Positions 6,701 to 16,718 of a stretch of 21,868 nucleotides of DNA are shown here, piece after piece; within the stretch, counting starts at the first letter, position 1; each line of letters begins with the position of its first letter. Position numbers and translations under genes: made by a program. This DNA comes from a virus (Duplodnaviria > Heunggongvirae > Uroviricota > Caudoviricetes). Location: IMG/VR virus record IMGVR_UViG_2700989545_000008; one strand, 5' to 3'. A model generated the notes under the pieces. It did no database searches. It had not been told where the DNA came from and worked only from the letters and a program-made list of their open reading frames with translations.

Positions 6701-7550
6701 GGATTTTCTCAGCCATCTCTGCCGGATGTTTGCGCATCAGCACCACATCAACGACTGTACTGGTCCCGTTTGCGTCAAAAGTACCGGTAGGCAAGCGGTG
6801 GGCACCAAGAAATTCAGCTTTCCGTGATAGGCGCAGGCGTAACCGCTTCATGTTTGAACCTGAAACAATGGACGGCGGCACAATCACGCACATGAATCCG
6901 CCTGGCTTTATCTTGTCCAGCATGCGGAGCATGAAGTAAGAACCCATGTCCGTTTCTTCTGCGTAAGGCTTATCGATGTTGCGTGTGTTATCACGACCGC
7001 CGAACGGAACGTTACCCACAACATGGTCGAATGAATCGTTAGGCGTGCTTATAGCCAGCTGTTCGAACGGGGAAATCTGTACGCTGTCTTCCGGGTGTAA
7101 CAACTGGTTTATACGACCGGAAACACTGCTGATCTCAGTCGCGGTCATCACCGTACCAACCGGTTTTGTCTCATTAAAAACGCCGGTTCCCGCCGATGGT
7201 TCCAGAGTGTTACCTACGTCCGCGCCGTAGAGCTTCATGATCTCCCAGACACCTTCAGCGATCGGCTTTGGTGTGTAATATTCGGAGACGGACCCGCCAA
7301 TGCCGCCTTCACCGGTGTACCCAGCCAGGATCTGGCGCTGTTCATCTGTCAGTGTCGCGCCGTCCACCAGCGAATTAAGCAAATCTATCGCCTTCTGATT
7401 CGCCTCCCGGCGTAGTCGGTCATAGCTTTTGCCTTCCACCTTTTCCACGCCGTATCTAATCGGCGCTCGGTGAGATGTTATTGCCCTAATGTATTTCAAT
7501 ATTTCGCTGACACTTGAACAGCGAAACACCCCCATAGATAGCTTGTTCAT
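783..7550 (-). CDS. darB: DarB-like giant antirestriction protein (N6-adenine methyltransferase plus SF2 helicase)
   Basis: Uninterrupted 2255-aa ORF. N-terminal methyltransferase-type motifs (EPSAGTGVF; GNVPFGG); helicase Walker A (GFGTGLGKTTTALA) and DEGH box (VIADEGHNYRN). AAGGA Shine-Dalgarno 6 nt before the ATG. Size matches what I recall for P1 DarB. Confidence 0.85.
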   Translation of the reverse strand: MNKLSMGVFRCSSVSEILKYIRAITSHRAPIRYGVEKVEGKSYDRLRREANQKAIDLLNSLVDGATLTDEQRQILAGYTGEGGIGGSVSEYYTPKPIAEGVWEIMKLYGADVGNTLEPSAGTGVFNETKPVGTVMTATEISSVSGRINQLLHPEDSVQISPFEQLAISTPNDSFDHVVGNVPFGGRDNTRNIDKPYAEETDMGSYFMLRMLDKIKPGGFMCVIVPPSIVSGSNMKRLRLRLSRKAEFLGAHRLPTGTFDANGTSTVVDVVLMRKHPAEMAEKIPLVDESTLESANVLWPTFISGKWFEKDGRRFVHGTQEKGFQGRIEVRADGQIDNQALKAKLIHRFESRIDWSLLDMAEPSLTADVVGEGEMRLINGVWQKYAGGRWIEADAGKELKIDAASYGADSWEALQRNLTTTEGRLGMTFTQMANVRDKYTTSISDDMVQLVDWINSQPEKYRERLYRGAMIGRMLIEYQDMKAAGHSAEQIEQQRLSLVSRLQAEIDRFGNPGRGPIAKLSGSGARAWFAFRGAIKLDGTISDELTGKLVTHDSSASYDSTSYQDTLRYLYSDLTRDPIQLDDFRLAFTGELPASDEELLNLLASTPGIAVSPYGGIVPFARATSGDINEIVAPKQEFLATLPDGPVKNNVLNQLAAIEEKRIKTPAENIRFKLNSRWFDRSVILEFLQENGYPDLRYVQSVQLEGDEMVSDTYHGGDGLFVGHRYGVVQRKDKETGEIRYEWDRKSGENATGFPAQLEKYLNGARIGGKDSATANGYREQMALLEDQFNKWIKTHDRYDELVAKYNDVFNSNIPYEHSGDPLGLKGLSGKRQPFDYQNSEVRRLSEDGRGILGFGTGLGKTTTALALEAFNYENGRSTRTAYVVPKSVLENWYYEAKEFLSEEAFSNYLFVGLDVLMDGDQIRQVPVLDENGKPVLGTDGTPVMRDALKLADEATITARMNAIPHSNYRAVVFTKEQYARIPLRDDTVDEHAQDMLYDFVAAGRVASAMDSDSHRKEAARRRVLSEYSDTGTEKAEKYPYFEDMGFDSVIADEGHNYRNSYKNGREASQLAYLPTSAVAQSARDMAIKNAYLMKKNGGRGPVLLTATPVVNTPIDAYNMLSHVLPKEYWQNMGIYGPDDFVKFFGKTRLETVQKISGEVEEKMALVGFENLDALRGIFHRWVTLKTAEDVKDTVEIPELDEHQQDAPLTEEQLAAYEELRQQAEAAAKANNGVTTSVNEDGVIEHEKARPIFSIIRDMDRVCTDMDLYYRRITYRFLPEYADAVQQLADSLPKQATSEDDDSDDSITQQSQYSLIDKGEFIQLQVPEAFEQEVNKRLARFGIDEQTVTHPVTPKYAKLIATLKEFFPEGKQIIFTDEKTQHQKLKRIICNALNLEPSKVGILNAQTVAEAGKTGKKLKAVKPPKELPDEPTDAQIAKYNEQMALYDAYIAQQNEMSLGGLEKIAADFQEGRTPIIICNKKAEVGINLHRGTTDIHHLTLPWTPASIAQRNGRGARVGSNRASVRVHYYCGKGSFDEYRLKTLKRKAGWISDILRSDKSEMENADANDMIEMQMYTAKDDGERLAMMQVQMDKAKAAKRARQKEQATIDLQNYIKAQHAAGEDVEVLTAELERSKAELEKTTAEVAKFKQAVMAKAADNADWKARWGSVHHTDRMLLAQYRASLKSAIQRKANISQAISRYEKLLNRTQKAATDIKRLRPLVEDAINKGILDVDPDLVNHANEFLVIGDRSWRVGQYYDCAGDIVRIKSLDFDSQRADVEIIFTFKGTKSGNWDVKTLDKQVDVTPDEDAVMQKISGGVSIAGINDIISCDDFYRFQQRGMIKITDSYGVQTTESGYSIDFVGTYTDPLKHAVYPDRRDGALKSSIAKWVLGMMSEGNNRQIRSAETFLVELFGSNYGDVIASYGDTLSPEAIQEKIADAIARMPEKTSQGATRNGDSELEVTNAIFGTNEFRASDYEITTAQFGTIGIYSNKAEIKQAMDAASARIAAEREANLNHAVAALTQSWVTAIREAATTGKITPAIADVVNDGSKFMDAYQMDAVKLPSAYGQLSYRMTYNLVSMFSDLAILGLVDLNEVTPELLSMRKNHVEILQRINTVLAGRTDEEKQADADRINLALGNITEEEIAARNEKQEELSSIQGDATSIAQSLGLNYRVSTADLKMMYAPKFAAGEVFGLQEASGMKGVLFRAKDAIKAKFGARWLPAKAKNSDFPGNWWIIETKHNVADVLAVIQQYA

Positions 7551-10391: not shown

Positions 10392-10646
10392 TTATCGCCT
10401 TCGCCTGCGTGCCATATATTTGCGCACCGCGCGGCGTGGACAATCTGAAGCGGTTTCTTTCTGCTGCATCAATCTTGCAGCCATGCTCAAAAATGTCAGG
10501 CACAGCCGAAGCCCGGCATACAATAGCGGTTCCAGTGGCCACGTCTCATTGAGCACATATACCGCCATGAAAATCGAGTCGAAAACTATCGCCGCCAACG
10601 ATAACTTCATTGTCGAAAGTCGGCGGAGCTGCCGGAGTTTATTCAT
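10392..10646 (-). CDS. Small hydrophobic protein coupled to lyz (putative lysis accessory)
   Basis: 84-aa ORF whose ATG overlaps the lyz stop (ATGAATAA). Hydrophobic core (LSLAAIVFDSIFMAVYVL) and an arginine-rich C-terminus. Followed by the terminator. Confidence 0.45.
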   Translation of the reverse strand: MNKLRQLRRLSTMKLSLAAIVFDSIFMAVYVLNETWPLEPLLYAGLRLCLTFLSMAARLMQQKETASDCPRRAVRKYMARRRRR

Positions 10647-11196
10647 TGACCAGTCCCGTCAGGCAAAGCTGGCGTTCTTTTTCACGGCGAATCTTTAAAC
10701 CTCGCAGGGGCACGCCGTTACTGTTCACGAAATCAGGGAGATGGTTACACATATTCACCCATTCCCCTTTCTGCGCCCACTTGTGGATGGACGTTTCTAC
10801 TCGCATGCCTCGCGCTTTGCTGTAGTAGGTCCGTAAGCTATTGCATCCCATATTGAATGCCGCGCTTGTCATTGCACTGAAGGCATTATCGGGCATGTCT
10901 TTGCCCCGGAAGTGCTGATTAATACAGCGTTCAGCGATCAGGATATTCTTTTCCCAATCAGCGGCGATTTGCTGGTCTGTTTTTCGCACACCCGGCGTTA
11001 CCCCGTGTGTATTACCGATCCCGTCAGTCCATACCCCTGCCGGGCACATGTATGGATCACGTCGGCAACCTTCAGCGTTACCAATCAGCTCAAGCCCCGC
11101 CTGGTTGGTTCGCACATTGCCATTACCCATCACGATGGTAATCATCACCGCGATAGCGCAAATTGCACCGCCTCCTGCGGCTGTTTTTCCCTTCAT
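10639..11196 (-). CDS. lyz: SAR endolysin, lysozyme family (P1 Lyz-like)
   Basis: Internal ATG (MKGKTAAGGGAICAIAVMITIVMG...) gives 185 aa with a glycine/alanine-rich N-terminal signal-anchor-release segment and T4-lysozyme-type motifs (GLELIGNAEGCRRDPYMCPAGVWTDGIGNTHG). GAGG precedes this ATG. The track's 33-aa N-terminal extension is probably untranslated. Confidence 0.85.
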   Translation of the reverse strand: MKGKTAAGGGAICAIAVMITIVMGNGNVRTNQAGLELIGNAEGCRRDPYMCPAGVWTDGIGNTHGVTPGVRKTDQQIAADWEKNILIAERCINQHFRGKDMPDNAFSAMTSAAFNMGCNSLRTYYSKARGMRVETSIHKWAQKGEWVNMCNHLPDFVNSNGVPLRGLKIRREKERQLCLTGLVNE

Positions 11197-11328
11197 AAAG
11201 ACCTCATAAGCGAATTTTTTACGCTCCAGGACAAACACCCATTCACAGCCAATACCGACTGACTCGATCCCTTTAGAAGGCACAGGATAATGCAAATCAC
11301 TTGTTAGCTACGTTTCAAAGATATACAT

Positions 11329-11345
11329 TATTGCTCTAATTAATT
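11329..11345 (+). promoter_or_regulatory. C1-repressor operator-like 17-mer upstream of ssb
   Basis: ATTGCTCTAATTAATTT matches the asymmetric P1 C1 operator consensus as I recall it (ATTGCTCTAATAAATTT) at 16 of 17 positions; ends 20 nt before the ssb start codon. Confidence 0.5.
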
Positions 11346-11365
11346 TATTTTATTAGGTAAGATAA

Positions 11366-11854
11366 GTGGCACAACGCGGTGTAAACAAAGTCATCCTGAT
11401 TGGTACCCTGGGGCAAGACCCGGAGATCAGGTATATACCAAATGGCGGCGCGGTCGGAAGACTCAGCATCGCAACGAATGAATCATGGCGGGACAAGCAA
11501 ACGGGCCAACAGAAAGAGCAAACAGAATGGCATAAAGTCGTTTTGTTCGGAAAACTTGCTGAAATTGCGAGTGAGTATTTACGAAAAGGTTCTCAGGTCT
11601 ACATCGAAGGGAAACTTAAAACCCGTAAGTGGACAGATGACGCCGGTGTAGAACGTTACACGACGGAAATTATCGTCAGCCAGGGCGGCACCATGCAAAT
11701 GATCGGCGCTCGCCGTGACGATTCACAGTCCTCAAATGGCTGGGGGCAATCAAACCAACCTCAAAACCACCAGCAATACAGTGGTGGCGGTAAACCTCAG
11801 AGCAACGCCAATAACGAACCTCCAATGGACTTTGACGACGATATTCCGTTTTGA
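11366..11854 (+). CDS. ssb: Single-stranded DNA-binding protein
   Basis: 162 aa, GTG start. N-terminal OB-fold region nearly collinear with E. coli SSB ([20 protein letters not shown]...; [30 protein letters not shown]), glycine/glutamine-rich linker and acidic tail [11 protein letters not shown]. Confidence 0.9.
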
Positions 11855-11950
11855 ATGTGTAAAAAACGACTGAAAGAAAAGCGGTGGTCCAGACGCCGAC
11901 AAAAGCACGAACTCGCAAACAAACGCCAAAGTTGGCAATGGCACGCGCTT

Positions 11951-12031
11951 NNNNNNNNNNNNNNNNNNNNNNNNNNNNNNNNNNNNNNNNNNNNNNNNNN
12001 NNNNNNNNNNNNNNNNNNNNNNNNNNNNNNN
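11951..12031. other. 81-nt run of N (masked or unresolved sequence)
   Basis: Literal n characters. The long 11884-12729 ORF in the track is an artefact of translating through them. Confidence 1.
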
Positions 12032-12051
12032 TTTTAAGCAGAGGAAAGACT

Positions 12052-12729
12052 ATGAATAACATGACAACGAAAGAGCTTTTGACGGCACTTCCAAAATACA
12101 AAAGCCATAAAACAGTTCGCGCCTCAAAAATCAAAGATATCGAAATTATCGCCCTAATGGATGTGGTCCTTTTTTGCAACATCGAAGTCGTTGAGCCAGA
12201 AGGGGTAAAAGTCCATGTTGATAAAATGTTTTTGCAAAAACACCGACCAGAAATTGGCGGATATCTGGTCGCTTATGAGGACGGATCTCTGTCCTATTCA
12301 CCAGAAAAAACATTTGAAGAAGGCTTTAGTCGGACTAACGACTTCTTCGAAAATGGGGTATCGCTCAGTATTGAAGGTCACAATGGGGTGACATTCATTA
12401 CAGCCAGGGACGTAACTATTGCTGCCAGTGGCATCATTACCACACAAGAAGAAATCGACCTTGAAGCAGCCGACTTTTCTGACGCGCTGATGTGGCTGAA
12501 GGATGGCAAGAAAGTTGCTCGACGCGGGTGGAACGGCGAAAACCAATTCTGCTGGCTGGTTCCTGAAGGACAGTACCCGGCACGAATGGAAGCCATTAAG
12601 GGATATTTCCCCGGCGACCTCGTTCCGTATGGTGCTTATTTCGCCTTAAAAAATGCACAAGGTGTAGTTGTTCCGTGGGTTCCTTCTGTAGGCGACTTAC
12701 TGGCATGTGACTGGTTTGTAGTGGAGTGA
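12052..12729 (+). CDS. Two-domain cargo protein: unknown N-terminal domain plus C-terminal DUF2829 (Tad2-like) domain
   Basis: ATG at 12052 with GAGGAAAG 4-11 nt upstream. C-terminal ~85 aa (FSDALMWLKDGKKVARRGWNG...VVVPWVPSVGDLLACDWFVVE) follow the DUF2829 pattern as I remember it. The frame is open back into the N run, so a longer N-terminus cannot be excluded. Confidence 0.7.
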   Translation: MNNMTTKELLTALPKYKSHKTVRASKIKDIEIIALMDVVLFCNIEVVEPEGVKVHVDKMFLQKHRPEIGGYLVAYEDGSLSYSPEKTFEEGFSRTNDFFENGVSLSIEGHNGVTFITARDVTIAASGIITTQEEIDLEAADFSDALMWLKDGKKVARRGWNGENQFCWLVPEGQYPARMEAIKGYFPGDLVPYGAYFALKNAQGVVVPWVPSVGDLLACDWFVVE

Positions 12730-12735
12730 TTTAAC

Positions 12736-13518
12736 GTGGAAAATACTAAAGCAATTCAATACCGCCTGCGTAATGGTCAGAGTGTCGAAGTGACCATCAA
12801 TAATGATGGTGTGCCTGGCGAAAAGGTTTCGATCTCTGATCTGGCTATCGAAAAAACCATCATGTGCCACCTTGGCTTTACTGAAGAAGTGAGCAAAAAG
12901 CATGGTGTAGCAATCTGGAGCGCAATGGATACTGGTATGCGCAGATTCATTACTGCTCGTACCCCAGGGATGACCATGATGGACCTCATGCAGATTGCGC
13001 CGCTGTTTGAATGTGAGCCTTTAGATGTATTCAGCAATCCAGCTATCTGCCAGCAGCTATATGGTGAGATGAAACTCGCGGTTACCCCCATTGTGCTGCA
13101 TGAAGGATCGCTTGCTGGCGTGTGGAAAGTGGAGCGTATTTCAAGCTACATGCCTTTCCATGTCAACGGCGTAATCACTGGTGAAAATCAACCTGTTTCC
13201 GTTATAAAGTCAGACCTCAAGCGCGCAATTCTTGAAGCAAGTTGTCGAGTTGTCGGCCTGGGCAAACAGTCTTATGTTTCCTTCCCGGCTGGCCCTGAAG
13301 GCCCGGCAGAAATTCTGATTATGGATGCCGATCTGCTCTGGCAAATACAGTTTCTGATTGGCAAAAGCATCATCCGCGCTGAAGAACTCGATCAGTACAT
13401 TACCTGCACGATGACGGATGAAGTCAAAAGTGTGGCTATAGCCAATGCCCGGAACCTATGTCGTGCTGCATTAACAGAACTGCAAGAAAACACCACGGAA
13501 GAAGTGGAAAGCGATTAA
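12736..13518 (+). CDS. Hypothetical 260-aa protein coupled to the DUF2829 gene
   Basis: GTG start 7 nt after the upstream stop, GGAG Shine-Dalgarno inside the upstream gene's last codons. No motif recognised. Ends at the strong terminator. Confidence 0.6.
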   Translation: MENTKAIQYRLRNGQSVEVTINNDGVPGEKVSISDLAIEKTIMCHLGFTEEVSKKHGVAIWSAMDTGMRRFITARTPGMTMMDLMQIAPLFECEPLDVFSNPAICQQLYGEMKLAVTPIVLHEGSLAGVWKVERISSYMPFHVNGVITGENQPVSVIKSDLKRAILEASCRVVGLGKQSYVSFPAGPEGPAEILIMDADLLWQIQFLIGKSIIRAEELDQYITCTMTDEVKSVAIANARNLCRAALTELQENTTEEVESD

Positions 13519-13549
13519 AAAAAATCCCGCCGAGTGGCGGGATTTCTTC
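13517..13549. terminator. Strong bidirectional intrinsic terminator
   Basis: A7 tract, perfect 8-bp GC-rich stem ATCCCGCC / GGCGGGAT with loop GAGT, then TTCTTC. Lies between the convergent stops of the 12736-13518 and 13548-13856 ORFs. Confidence 0.8.
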
Positions 13550-13856
13550 AATATACGATCTGGTCTACATGATCACCAAAATCATCGTCGTCGTCCTCAT
13601 CGCCACCATCTACTGCTGGCCAATCAACAAACCAGCCAGCGTAAAGATGCAGCGTTCGGAGAACATCACTTGCGGGAGCATCAAGGGTGTTAACGAATCC
13701 CATATAGCTATTGGGATTTGCCCCAGCTATGGCTTCAGCGATCATGTCCTCGGTAATGTCACCGGAGATAATGCTTAAACGCCCGGAAACTTCTTCATTA
13801 TCATCAAATTCGATAATGGCATCTCCACCTAATGGCGCTGCGATTTTAATCTGCAT
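13548..13856 (-). CDS. Extremely acidic 102-aa protein, translationally coupled to the ddrB-like gene
   Basis: ATG overlaps the end of the upstream ORF by 11 nt. About 23 Asp/Glu against 3 Lys/Arg, including a C-terminal DGGDEDDDDDFGDHVDQ tract. No helix-turn-helix pattern. Confidence 0.6.
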   Translation of the reverse strand: MQIKIAAPLGGDAIIEFDDNEEVSGRLSIISGDITEDMIAEAIAGANPNSYMGFVNTLDAPASDVLRTLHLYAGWFVDWPAVDGGDEDDDDDFGDHVDQIVY

Positions 13857-16718
13857 TATTTAGCTCCTTTGCCACACCTAATAACAGTTCCAGCAATCCG
13901 TCACCATTCATCAGTGATGCGGCAGCGGCCTCTTTGTCATGATACAACTGAAGAGCCATAGAGAATACTTCCGTTGCTGACGTTTTGGAAATAGTCGGTG
14001 ATTTCTGCCGAATTTTCCCGGTGTTACTTACTGAGGCTGGCGGGTATACCTTCGCCATATAAATATTACTCAATCGAGATCTGAAGCACCATTCAGGCTT
14101 GCCACGCCCACCGATATTGACGAAAGATGGCTTATCCCCTTCAACATTGGACTTCAGGAATGACCGGGCTTTCTCTAACAAACCAGGGTTACTGTACTCA
14201 AGATGATGACCCAGCTCGTGCCACAGTGCACTTGCATTTTCATCGTTCAAATTGACAGCAACAACACCATTAAGATTTGCATATGCCCTTCCCTGGTGGT
14301 GAACTACCTTTGATAAGGTCGATATTTTCCCGCCGGTCAGGCGATAAATATCAGCAAGTTCCTTGCGCAGGTCTATCCCACCATTCTGTCCAGCGCGGAC
14401 TTCTTCCACTTCTTCTGTGATAAAAGAGTCGGCCCACTCAAGAGCTTTTTCTTCAGATACGGATGAGTTTGCGATCGCACTGTTCATGGCAGATAACACT
14501 TTCTCGTGGACCGAACCCATACTTCGCTGATTCATTTGCCAGCGTATCTGCGGGTTATATGAGAATCGCTTAAGTAGTTGGTCAAGCTGCTCAAGTTCTT
14601 CTTCACTGACATACTTTTTAGCCTCACCAATAATGCCAGGGAGAATATTGCCGTTAGGATTAAACGCTCGCGAAAGGAAGAGTTTCAGCGCCCCCATGCC
14701 CTCCGATGCTTCAATATCACCAATAACCCGGTTAACAATGGCCGCACTCTTCGGATTAGCATCCGCCAACGCTCTGGCTACGATTTGCAGGGACGATACG
14801 ACCTCACGCTGCATATCAGTCCTGATCTCATCAATAAACTCTGGCGTTATGCCGTGCTCTTTAAGAATATCCCGGCCTTCCGCCGTTACCCCATCGATAT
14901 CACCGACATGTTTATTAACACGACTTTGCAATGCCTTAAATGCCTTCAGAATTCCACGGGCATCATCCGCTTTACTAACGGCCTTCCTGAATGCTGGCAA
15001 GAAGTCTGAGTTAACCTCATTTTGTCGATCGGCCCACTGAATGGAGGCTTCTTTCATCTCGTCCAGAGTCAGATCAACCAACGCGGTATGGTCTGTGAAT
15101 ATGAGCGACAACCTCTGAACCATTTCTGCCAATGGTGATGCCGAATGCGCCGCGCTAAGGAATGCTTTCACCCTGGTTGGGCGAATGGAAAACCAGTCAA
15201 TAGCTGGTGGCATATCTCCGTTTTTTATCGCCTGCGCTATCTCGTCAAAGCCATCGCGCCCAAGGGAGGATGCGTGATTTAACAAGCCGCGAAGTAACGA
15301 ATTGCTGATACCGAATAATCGGCACCATTTTTTCACGTCGGCAACAGGCATTCGAACAAAATGCGCAAGCACTTGTACAAGCTGTTCATCCTGGGGATCT
15401 GTGCGGGAAAGCAGCCTGATCAGATGAATAATGTCTTTGATGCCGGATGCCCGATGTAATAGCAAACTGGTATACGGAGCAACACCGTTGTAACTACCGC
15501 CGGAAACGGACTCGAAAAGNNNNNNNNNNNNNNNNNNNNNNNNNNNNNNNNNNNNNNNNNNNNNNNNNNNNNNNNNNNNNNNNNNNNNNNNNNNNNNNNN
15601 NNNNNNNNNNNNNNNNNNNNNNNNNNNNNNNNNNNNNNNNNNNNNNNNNCCCCCTGAGCAATAACATCGGTAATATGCTGGCCTGACTCCTTCGATTGCC
15701 TTACCAGGTCTACCGCATCTTTCAATGCCGCCAGCGCCTTTTTATCGAGGCTATCCGCTGTCTCAATGCCATCAACAATAGTTGTCACAGCCTGCTTGTG
15801 CGCTTCTCCTGATAAAGCCTGCATCTGGACAAAATCATTGGCTGCCGCATTAAGCGCCGTCAGAACATTACGCATATCCGGATCAGGTTCTTCTGCAACC
15901 ATCCTTACCAGGCGCGCATCCTTATATGCCTTGGCAAAGATCGCGTTTTGTATACGGTCTACAAGTTGCCGTGTTGGTCGCCCATCTTCAGTTACAAGGC
16001 CAGCCGCCTGTGTGGCACCAACTTGCGTCATAAATCCGCGAATAAACGCGTCATTACTGCGGCTAAGCAGATCTCCACTTTCTGACGGGTTAAACAACGC
16101 CATCATCGCCGGTGTTATGCTGTCGGCATCAACAAAAGCCTTTTCACTGGCTGCCATTTCCTGGAGATCAGAAATATTTGAGTCCTTGGCAAACTGAACA
16201 CGGTCAACCTTCGTTAACCGGCGGCGCACCAGTACCGGAGCCGTCATTGATTCAACCTTTTCAGGCCGTATGCCGAATTCGGTCGCATGTTCAATCAGGT
16301 ACTCCCGATACCGATCCGCATTACCGTCCTGATAGGCTTTAATGATCCCCATGGTCCGCCCATTACCTGACTCAACGGCATTGTCCTCACCAATTATTGG
16401 CGCACCATGGCTGGATAAACCGGAATCAGTAAGCTGAGCTGGCCGCAAATCTTTGGATATCTGGTTAACCTGAAGAAGGCTGGATGCGCGGGTCCGGTCG
16501 CGCGGCTGAAGTTCCTGGGGATAGTCAGGATTAATTTTCCCATCCAGAGTATTGGATACCAAAAGAGCTGAGGCATCGACGATATCAAACGCTGTTTTTA
16601 CCTCGTCTCCCTTCGCTGTCACCACATACGAAACCCGCCCATAATCGGGCAGGTTCTTTAGCAGCTCGATCAGCGTTTCTATGCTGGTGGCCATTACCAC
16701 CTGATCGCTTAAGCTCAT
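13846..16718 (-). CDS. ddrB: DdrB-like large darA-operon protein, interrupted by an N run; contains an HExxH motif
   Basis: N-terminal part 15651-16718 (356 codons) and C-terminal part 13846-15519 (open to the N-run edge; track start 15465 is only a TTG). The two parts are in different frames if the N run is exactly 130 nt. LWHELGHHLEYS in the C-terminal part. Together about 950 aa, consistent with the roughly 108-kDa DdrB I recall. Confidence 0.5.
15520..15649. other. 130-nt run of N inside the ddrB-like gene
   Basis: Literal n characters; flanking frames differ by one nucleotide. Confidence 1.

Follow-up and report, generated by a model that had tools for sequence, protein, structure and literature searches.

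The 21,868-nucleotide (nt) stretch of DNA analyzed here in full (the window; IMG/VR record IMGVR_UViG_2700989545_000008) is a segment of a P1-like (Punavirus) phage-plasmid, with Salmonella phage SJ46 as its nearest relative (99% identity over the region). Downstream of the ssb gene, at 12052-13518, the window carries two co-directed genes, ORF1 and ORF2 (ORF, open reading frame). As a first-pass annotation of the same DNA had recognized, these two genes occupy the cargo slot that holds isaA, IS1 and isaB in P1; the regions are collinear, and the interval between ssb and hxr has been described as the variable region RD-2 (PMC6906374). In the reading that we prefer, with a probability of about 0.65, ssb, ORF1 and isaA form an early operon in which ORF1 is a modular counter-defense protein and ORF2, the homolog of P1 IsaA, acts independently of it. 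The parts of the two genes are as follows (aa, amino acids; OB, oligonucleotide/oligosaccharide-binding; pLDDT, predicted local distance difference test).

12052..12729 (stop codon included), + strand: ORF1, 225 aa, two modules, phrog_872; identical sequence deposited under the name 'DUF2829 domain-containing protein'
12052..12351, + strand: N-terminal domain of ORF1, aa 1-100 (folded core aa 10-97), Dec-like OB or small beta-barrel, belonging to no Pfam family
12352..12462, + strand: linker of ORF1, aa 101-137, beta-rich, low confidence (pLDDT 46-51), variable or absent in homologs
12463..12726, + strand: Tad2-like (DUF2829) domain of ORF1, aa 138-225, ModTad2 type
12736..13518, + strand: ORF2, isaA homolog, 260 aa, phrog_2326, orphan family

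ORF1 starts with ATG behind the ribosome-binding site GAGGA, and ORF2 with GTG, 6 nt past the ORF1 stop codon and with GGAG 9 nt upstream. The locus is less novel than the first-pass annotation had assumed. Both exact proteins are widespread in databases, ORF1 on more than 700 contigs under the name given above and ORF2 as 'hypothetical protein', and a DefenseFinder screen has already reported Tad2 in 56% of the P1-type and 93% of the D6-type phage-plasmids (bioRxiv 10.1101/2025.09.12.675607).

The Tad2-like domain of ORF1

Judging from sequence, the C-terminal domain of ORF1 is a true Tad2 homolog, as its DUF2829 pattern had suggested at first reading. In a Pfam profile check, aa 141-224 match PF11195 (Tad2-like) with a score of 80.3 bits (cut-off 25; E=1.6e-22) over positions 2-73 of the 73-position profile. 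The closest characterized relative is ModTad2 from a Myroides odoratus prophage (PDB 9EIB), all 89 aa of which align end to end with aa 137-225 of ORF1 (E=6e-20, ~47-50% identity); weaker matches are to AcrIIA7/HgmTad2, SPO1 Tad2 and SptTad2. Both domains of ORF1 are modeled with high confidence, and the predicted fold of the C-terminal one is comparable with the solved Tad2 structures. ORF1 shares with ModTad2 the length class of the beta2-beta5 insertion and the C-terminal helix motif WxPSVxDxLAxDW but, unlike the free-standing ModTad2, has ~137 additional N-terminal residues. At 225 aa and with an extra domain, ORF1 also departs from the short, stand-alone format of ~90-100 aa by which the Tad2 family is recognized; fused Tad2 proteins are documented members of the family (bioRxiv 10.1101/2025.07.12.664507).

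The ligand pocket was compared by alignment against HgmTad2, in which W21/N22/G23, S90, T92 and D93 line the gcADPR pocket (PMC10680739). The GWNG loop of ORF1 (W160-N161-G162), S212 and D215 align with HgmTad2 W21/N22/G23, S90 and D93, respectively, and W160, S212 and D215 are invariant in the alignment of 38 homologs. Type I Thoeris is not blocked by ModTad2, which sequesters the signal of type II Thoeris, His-ADPR (bioRxiv 10.1101/2024.01.03.573942); a second interface of the same protein binds cUMP and cCMP and thereby blocks Pycsar (bioRxiv 10.1101/2025.08.24.671296). In HgmTad2, the second, cyclic-nucleotide pocket is formed by the beta2-beta5 insertion (PMC10680739). Among the aligned P1 and D6 alleles, this insertion comes in at least 4 variants of length and sequence, as expected of a surface under diversifying pressure.

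Could ORF1 be a decaying, non-functional remnant of mosaic exchange, in a slot where only isaA matters? The gene is indeed dispensable, being missing in P1, interrupted by a ~10-kb insertion in phage RCS47 and, in one IMG/VR locus (L037), broken up by inserted DNA. This explanation is nevertheless very improbable, given that the ORF1 frame is intact and identical or nearly identical on hundreds of contigs, that omega is 0.14-0.24 against distant homologs, and that the pocket residues are invariant in a protein with two confidently modeled domains. Still harder to credit is the possibility that the DUF2829 domain is an anti-CRISPR of the AcrIIA7 kind and not a signal sponge. Type II CRISPR-Cas is not known from E. 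coli and Salmonella. Moreover, Li et al. did not reproduce the inhibition of Cas9 by HgmTad2 and found sponge activity instead (PMC10680739), and Yirmiya et al. came to the same conclusion.

A recurrent N-terminal partner domain

The N-terminal part of ORF1, rightly described at first reading as unknown, turned out to be the most interesting part of the locus. The Pfam search gave no match for it. In the structure prediction, aa 10-97 are modeled with high confidence (pLDDT about 90) as a small beta-barrel, which qualifies as an OB-fold domain homologous to Dec. A beta-rich, low-confidence segment follows (aa 98-137), which is swapped or missing in many of the aligned homologs. The likeness to Dec is remote and says nothing yet on function. 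We considered and rejected the assignment of this domain to the Lockin (PF26760), Sequestin (PF21825) or Acb4 (PF13876) families, none of which it matches; a match to the EF-P OB family PF01132 (E=0.082) is noise.

A profile search of 5.8 billion proteins revealed about 25 stand-alone relatives of this domain, phage proteins of 79-117 aa, as well as fusions to Tad2, to PF21825 Sequestin (P0170, from Klebsiella phage ZX1, and P0193) and to PF25708, the T7 gp5.9 RecBCD inhibitor (P0181). A related segment is also found inside a MazG-like phrog. Among the 120 best relatives of ORF1, 89 have the same architecture, with this domain followed by Tad2, and 26 have another N-terminus or none, including dUTPase-Tad2 and Tad2-Sequestin fusions. 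The phages that encode relatives of the domain have unrelated capsids (podo-, sipho- and jumbo phages), and the genes usually lie in early regions, beside cI/cro-like or NinB genes; one stand-alone copy is located two genes away from a Lockin sponge gene.

The most telling case comes from two related Klebsiella phages, SopranoGao (L006, 4001-4597) and vB_KpnP_ZX1 (L092, 3501-4025), which carry the respective genes in the same early slot, between flanks with 90-96% identity. Over aa 1-111, which cover the N-terminal domain and the linker, the proteins share 95% identity. Beyond this point, they are fully diverged, one ending in Tad2 and the other in Sequestin (PF21825), a natural swap of a sponge cassette behind a constant N-terminal domain.

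The domain shows the fusion pattern on which 'guilt by fusion' in the sense of Tal et al. 2025 relies: it is short, phage-specific, mostly stand-alone and recurrently fused to sponge families. Tal et al. discovered Sequestin, on the same criterion, via its fusions to Tad2 and Acb4, and searched Pfam families only (bioRxiv 10.1101/2025.07.12.664507); the N-terminal domain of ORF1 would have been missed because it has no Pfam family. As in the sponge-sponge fusions described in that work (Acb4-Tad2 of Pasteurella phage Pm86, Sequestin-Tad2 and Sequestin-Acb4), ORF1 combines Tad2, a flexible linker and a small phage-specific domain that also exists on its own at ~90 aa and is fused to another sponge family, Sequestin. 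In contrast to those fusions, the partner in ORF1 is not Acb4, Sequestin or Lockin, has an OB-like beta-barrel in place of the alpha-helical fold of Sequestin, and is also fused to the non-sponge protein gp5.9. In the literature searched, we found no earlier account of a Dec-like domain that is repeatedly joined to Tad2, Sequestin and gp5.9.

The resemblance to Dec raises the question of whether the OB domain and the linker make up a capsid-binding or trimerizing module, so that ORF1 would be associated with the virion, for example, for delivery or display of the sponge, in the manner of the neighboring Dar/Ddr anti-restriction proteins that are packaged in the head. We give this scenario little credence. 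Dec of phage L (PDB 6E3C) is a late, capsid-binding trimer, in contrast to ORF1, which is fused to a sponge domain and encoded on the same strand as ssb, downstream of an early promoter under operator control and not in a late operon. Furthermore, the same domain occurs with Sequestin, with gp5.9 or alone (~90 aa) in phages with unrelated capsids, and the linker is absent or replaced in many homologs. For the N-terminal domain within the modular protein that we favor, a second anti-defense activity appears to be the most likely role, followed by oligomerization, stabilization or targeting, with Dec-like association with the capsid the least likely. The sole hint toward positively charged pockets between protomers is a conserved basic stretch, PxYK.HK.VRA.KI.

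Tentatively, then, the domain (phrog_11049 and the N-terminal part of phrog_872) may be an unrecognized, widespread anti-defense module of phages, possibly a sponge or inhibitor family in its own right, which is combined with interchangeable cassettes (Tad2 alleles, Sequestin, gp5.9) against two defenses, with IsaA perhaps a third, lineage-specific member of the operon. If the domain is active, a new family would be added to the counter-defense repertoire of phages, one in which sponge cassettes are swapped behind a constant partner.

isaA and its linkage to the Tad2 cassette

ORF2 is, by sequence comparison, IsaA: it is 100% identical to the isaA product of SJ46 and 94.6% identical to P1 IsaA over aa 2-260 (tblastn), and matches phrog_2326 with E=1.5e-149 over aa 1-260. 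The initial suggestion that both genes might simply be homologs of the P1 isa genes thus holds for ORF2 and fails for ORF1, which is absent from P1. ORF2 corresponds to residues 62-320 of P1 IsaA (P1_gp017), and the slot, the orientation and the hxr neighbor are the same. The two slots differ in their other genes: P1 has IS1 and isaB downstream of isaA and no ORF1 upstream of it, and the window has ORF1 but neither IS1 nor isaB.

The family is an orphan one. When 1.84 billion representative proteins were scanned in full with HMMER, only 34 clusters were obtained, all unannotated, and no relatives were found in Pfam (searched with all members), NCBIfam, PADLOC or the PDB (searched with the single sequence and a 17-member profile). 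The family members share the motifs NGxLxGxW.VER, CRV.G.GK.AY and ELD.Y, after which come acidic tails. The AlphaFold2 model of IsaA, built on a shallow alignment, is unusable (mean pLDDT 46.5, predicted template modeling score 0.28). Comparison with P1 shows strong purifying selection on the gene (omega 0.10, dS 0.21), and CRISPR interference indicates that isaA of P1 is dispensable for lytic growth (PMC10695390).

The deposited annotations begin further upstream: IsaA of P1 is given as 320 aa (L001, NC_005856, 4585-5547) and J46_0048, the counterpart of ORF1 in SJ46, as 281 aa (L002, 3585-4430), both from a GTG just after ssb. A start of ORF1 at the corresponding GTG 11884 of the window was rejected: of 59 related loci, about half have stop codons in this frame. 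In view of these stops in the 5' extension, the annotated P1 and SJ46 forms are over-extended, the real start being the ATG equivalent to window position 12052; the P1 protein itself is about 260-264 aa long.

ORF1 is missing from P1 with precision. The P1 sequence is retained through the ribosome-binding site and ATG of ORF1 and joins isaA at codon 3-4, so that the translation signals which serve ORF1 in the window serve isaA in P1. The tight coupling of ORF1 and isaA is best explained by the position of the Tad2 cassette, which directly abuts the isaA 5' end.

To assess how general this arrangement is, we examined 80 IMG/VR loci encoding IsaA relatives, 58 of the P1 type (93-100% IsaA identity) and 22 of the D6 type (about 48%). 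In all 22 D6-type loci, a Tad2-like gene ends 10-30 nt upstream of isaA, and the N-terminal domain is present as well in 16 of these. Among the 57 scorable P1-type loci (one more is truncated and unscorable), ORF1 lies immediately upstream of isaA in 22, is split off by an insertion in 1 and is lacking in 34. Interruptions of ORF1 are found elsewhere, too. In phage RCS47 (FO818745), 'part 1' of the DUF2829 gene is annotated at about 14743-15950 and isaA at 25823-26602, ~10 kb further on; a large insertion bounded by an inverted repeat appears to interrupt ORF1 here. In IMG/VR locus L037, the Tad2 domain is interrupted in a similar way, by ~1.4 kb. Some P1-type elements without ORF1 (vB_EcoM-813R1, L003 3039-4109; MH422554; MH445380) contain an extra 356-aa gene that overlaps the end of isaA. 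Two records name it 'terminase large subunit', and PADLOC gives no match for it; this gene is another cargo of the ssb-hxr slot.

In D6 and in a Logan contig (IsaA 44% identical), the pair occupies a different location from the ssb slot, in the order cre-like integrase ... dUTPase, Tad2-like gene, isaA. Window positions 12407-12776, which span the Tad2 domain and the 5' end of isaA, are 97% identical to D6 at the DNA level, and the IsaA bodies are only 48% identical as proteins; this attests to recent recombination across the Tad2-isaA junction. Distant IsaA homologs (19-24% identity; L089 and L090, P1-like elements of other hosts) are preceded by a winged-helix gene and not by a Tad2 gene. 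Their cre-proximal operon consists of the c1 repressor, the cre-like integrase, small genes and a 174-aa gene for a weakly MarR-like winged helix-turn-helix protein, with IsaA last, an order that suggests that the ancestral position of isaA was beside cre, as in D6, and not beside ssb. Conversely, fusions of the N-terminal domain to Tad2 exist without IsaA in Klebsiella phages and other elements. The Tad2-isaA linkage is thus frequent and old within the P1/D6 group of E. coli and Salmonella and is not obligatory either way.

It is against this background that the proposal of the first-pass annotation, a new two-component module, has to be judged. In its strong form, ORF1 and IsaA would be obligate partners in counter-defense, with IsaA acting on the ligand bound by Tad2 or binding the fusion protein. 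The 6-nt gap with an internal ribosome-binding site is compatible with translational coupling. The gene pair recurs in the D6-type and P1-type loci, in D6 and in the Logan contig, and is found in two genomic positions, beside ssb and beside cre, as if it moved as a unit; the junction, as noted, has been exchanged as a block. However, IsaA stands alone, under purifying selection, in P1 and in the 34 P1-type loci without ORF1, its distant homologs have no Tad2 neighbor, the fusions of the N-terminal domain to Tad2 occur without it, and every characterized Tad2 sponge acts alone. An obligate module is therefore unlikely. In the literature searched, no published description was found either of the clean cassette relationship to isaA or of the conserved Tad2-isaA adjacency.

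Expression signals and proposed role of the unit

The signals and genes that frame the pair are as follows.

11330..11346, + strand: C1 repressor operator in the ssb promoter region (Ossb/Op21 equivalent), ATTGCTCTAATTAATTT, one mismatch to the C1 operator consensus
11366..11854, + strand: ssb, first gene of the unit; Pfam SSB, E=7e-40; ssb in the P1 and SJ46 annotations
11855..12051, + strand: ssb-ORF1 spacer, 197 nt, including the N-masked positions 11951-12031 and a basic 60-aa ORF; not an N-terminal extension of ORF1
13522..13545, no strand assigned: GC-rich hairpin, preceded by an A-run and followed by a T-rich stretch; minimum free energy -17.1 kcal/mol, z=-2.95
13548..13856, - strand: hxr, right-hand boundary of the slot and start of the convergent dar/ddr operon; phrog_2292; hxr in the SJ46 and P1 annotations

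The operator is collinear with Ossb and the P1ssb and P2ssb promoters that are annotated in P1 (NC_005856; the region is 99.5% identical). From ssb to ORF2, the + strand has no terminator-like site in the window or in the unmasked SJ46 sequence, and the SJ46 copy of the spacer has no Rfam match at E<=1. The hairpin lies between the stop codons of ORF2 (13518) and hxr (13548) and, although not called by the consensus scan, is a probable bidirectional terminator common to isaA and the convergent hxr. Co-transcription of the pair with ssb from the operator-bearing promoter, as initially proposed, is accordingly plausible.

In the proposed scheme, upon infection or when C1 repression is lifted, the ssb promoter would drive ssb, ORF1 and isaA, probably early, with transcription ending at the hairpin. 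By homology, the Tad2 domain of ORF1 would form tetramers and sequester an ADPR-type signal derived from a TIR (Toll/interleukin-1 receptor) domain protein. The most likely ligand would be His-ADPR of type II Thoeris, with cyclic mono- or dinucleotides possibly bound in the pocket of the beta2-beta5 insertion. Such sequestration would hold the Thoeris effector off and, perhaps, the Pycsar or CBASS effectors as well. The N-terminal domain would be a portable module of its own, which in phages is also joined to Sequestin, gp5.9 and other Tad2 alleles, and IsaA would be a backbone-associated gene product of the P1/D6 phage-plasmid superfamily that acts independently. The analysis shows the identities of the domains, the synteny, the limits of the cassette and the purifying selection; transcription from the ssb promoter, the oligomeric state, the ligand and any activity of the N-terminal domain or IsaA are inferred.

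Several observations weigh against this picture. The equivalent of HgmTad2 T92 is G214 in ORF1 (S in ModTad2), which makes the ligand specificity uncertain, and the fused N-terminal part of ~137 aa could hinder the formation of the tetramer. The N-terminal domain has only one detectable relative with a known function, and this relative decorates capsids and is no sponge. A simple scan called no sigma-70 consensus in 11200-13900, so that the promoter assignment rests on the P1 annotation. Finally, the Tad2-isaA adjacency, maintained at ~48% IsaA identity and in two positions (22 of 22 D6-type loci near cre and 22 P1-type loci beside ssb), exceeds what a simple hitch-hiker would predict and would be compatible with some functional cooperation.

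Clinical E. coli, Shigella and Salmonella commonly harbor P1-like phage-plasmids, and P1 is among the phages with which defense systems are routinely tested. The Tad2 cassette is carried by about half of the wild relatives of P1 and is absent from laboratory P1, which would account for the sensitivity of P1 in assays of signaling defenses. The forms with and without ORF1 behind the same ribosome-binding site are a natural isogenic pair for testing. For isaA, a conserved orphan, the linkage to the cassette is the first handle on function.

The gene order in the window is darB, prt, pro, lydD/E, lyz, ssb, ORF1, ORF2, hxr, ddrB, ddrA, darA, hdf, and the portion lyz-ssb-ORF1-isaA-hxr-ddrB is collinear with P1 and SJ46, apart from ORF1, which P1 lacks. 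Two runs of N interrupt the window, 11951-12031 (81 nt, in the ssb-ORF1 spacer), which was read from the SJ46 copy, and 15520-15649 (130 nt, inside ddrB), which breaks ddrB in two in the ORF list. The spacer contains a very basic 60-aa ORF (MCKKRLKEKRWSRRRQKHELANKRQSWQWHAL...; 11855-12037, + strand), the ATG of which abuts the ssb stop codon (TGAATG) and the TAA of which falls just before the ORF1 ribosome-binding site. This ORF has no PHROG match and appears as 'hypothetical protein' in few NCBI records only. In 58 of 61 related loci, it is preserved at a length of exactly 60 aa, whereas the annotated frame that overlaps it gains stops; with variable sites distributed 10/3/10 over the codon positions, coding is not proven. 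Upstream of prt, at 7480-7496 (+ strand), there is a weak C1-operator-like site with 3 mismatches, ATTGCCCTAATGTATTT, at the position of the hypothetical Op(pro) annotated in P7. The lysozyme ORF (10639-11295, - strand) encodes 218 aa from a TTG start, compared to 214 aa in the SJ46 annotation and 185 aa in P1, and the greater length relative to P1 points to an N-terminal extension or an alternative start of the endolysin in this lineage.

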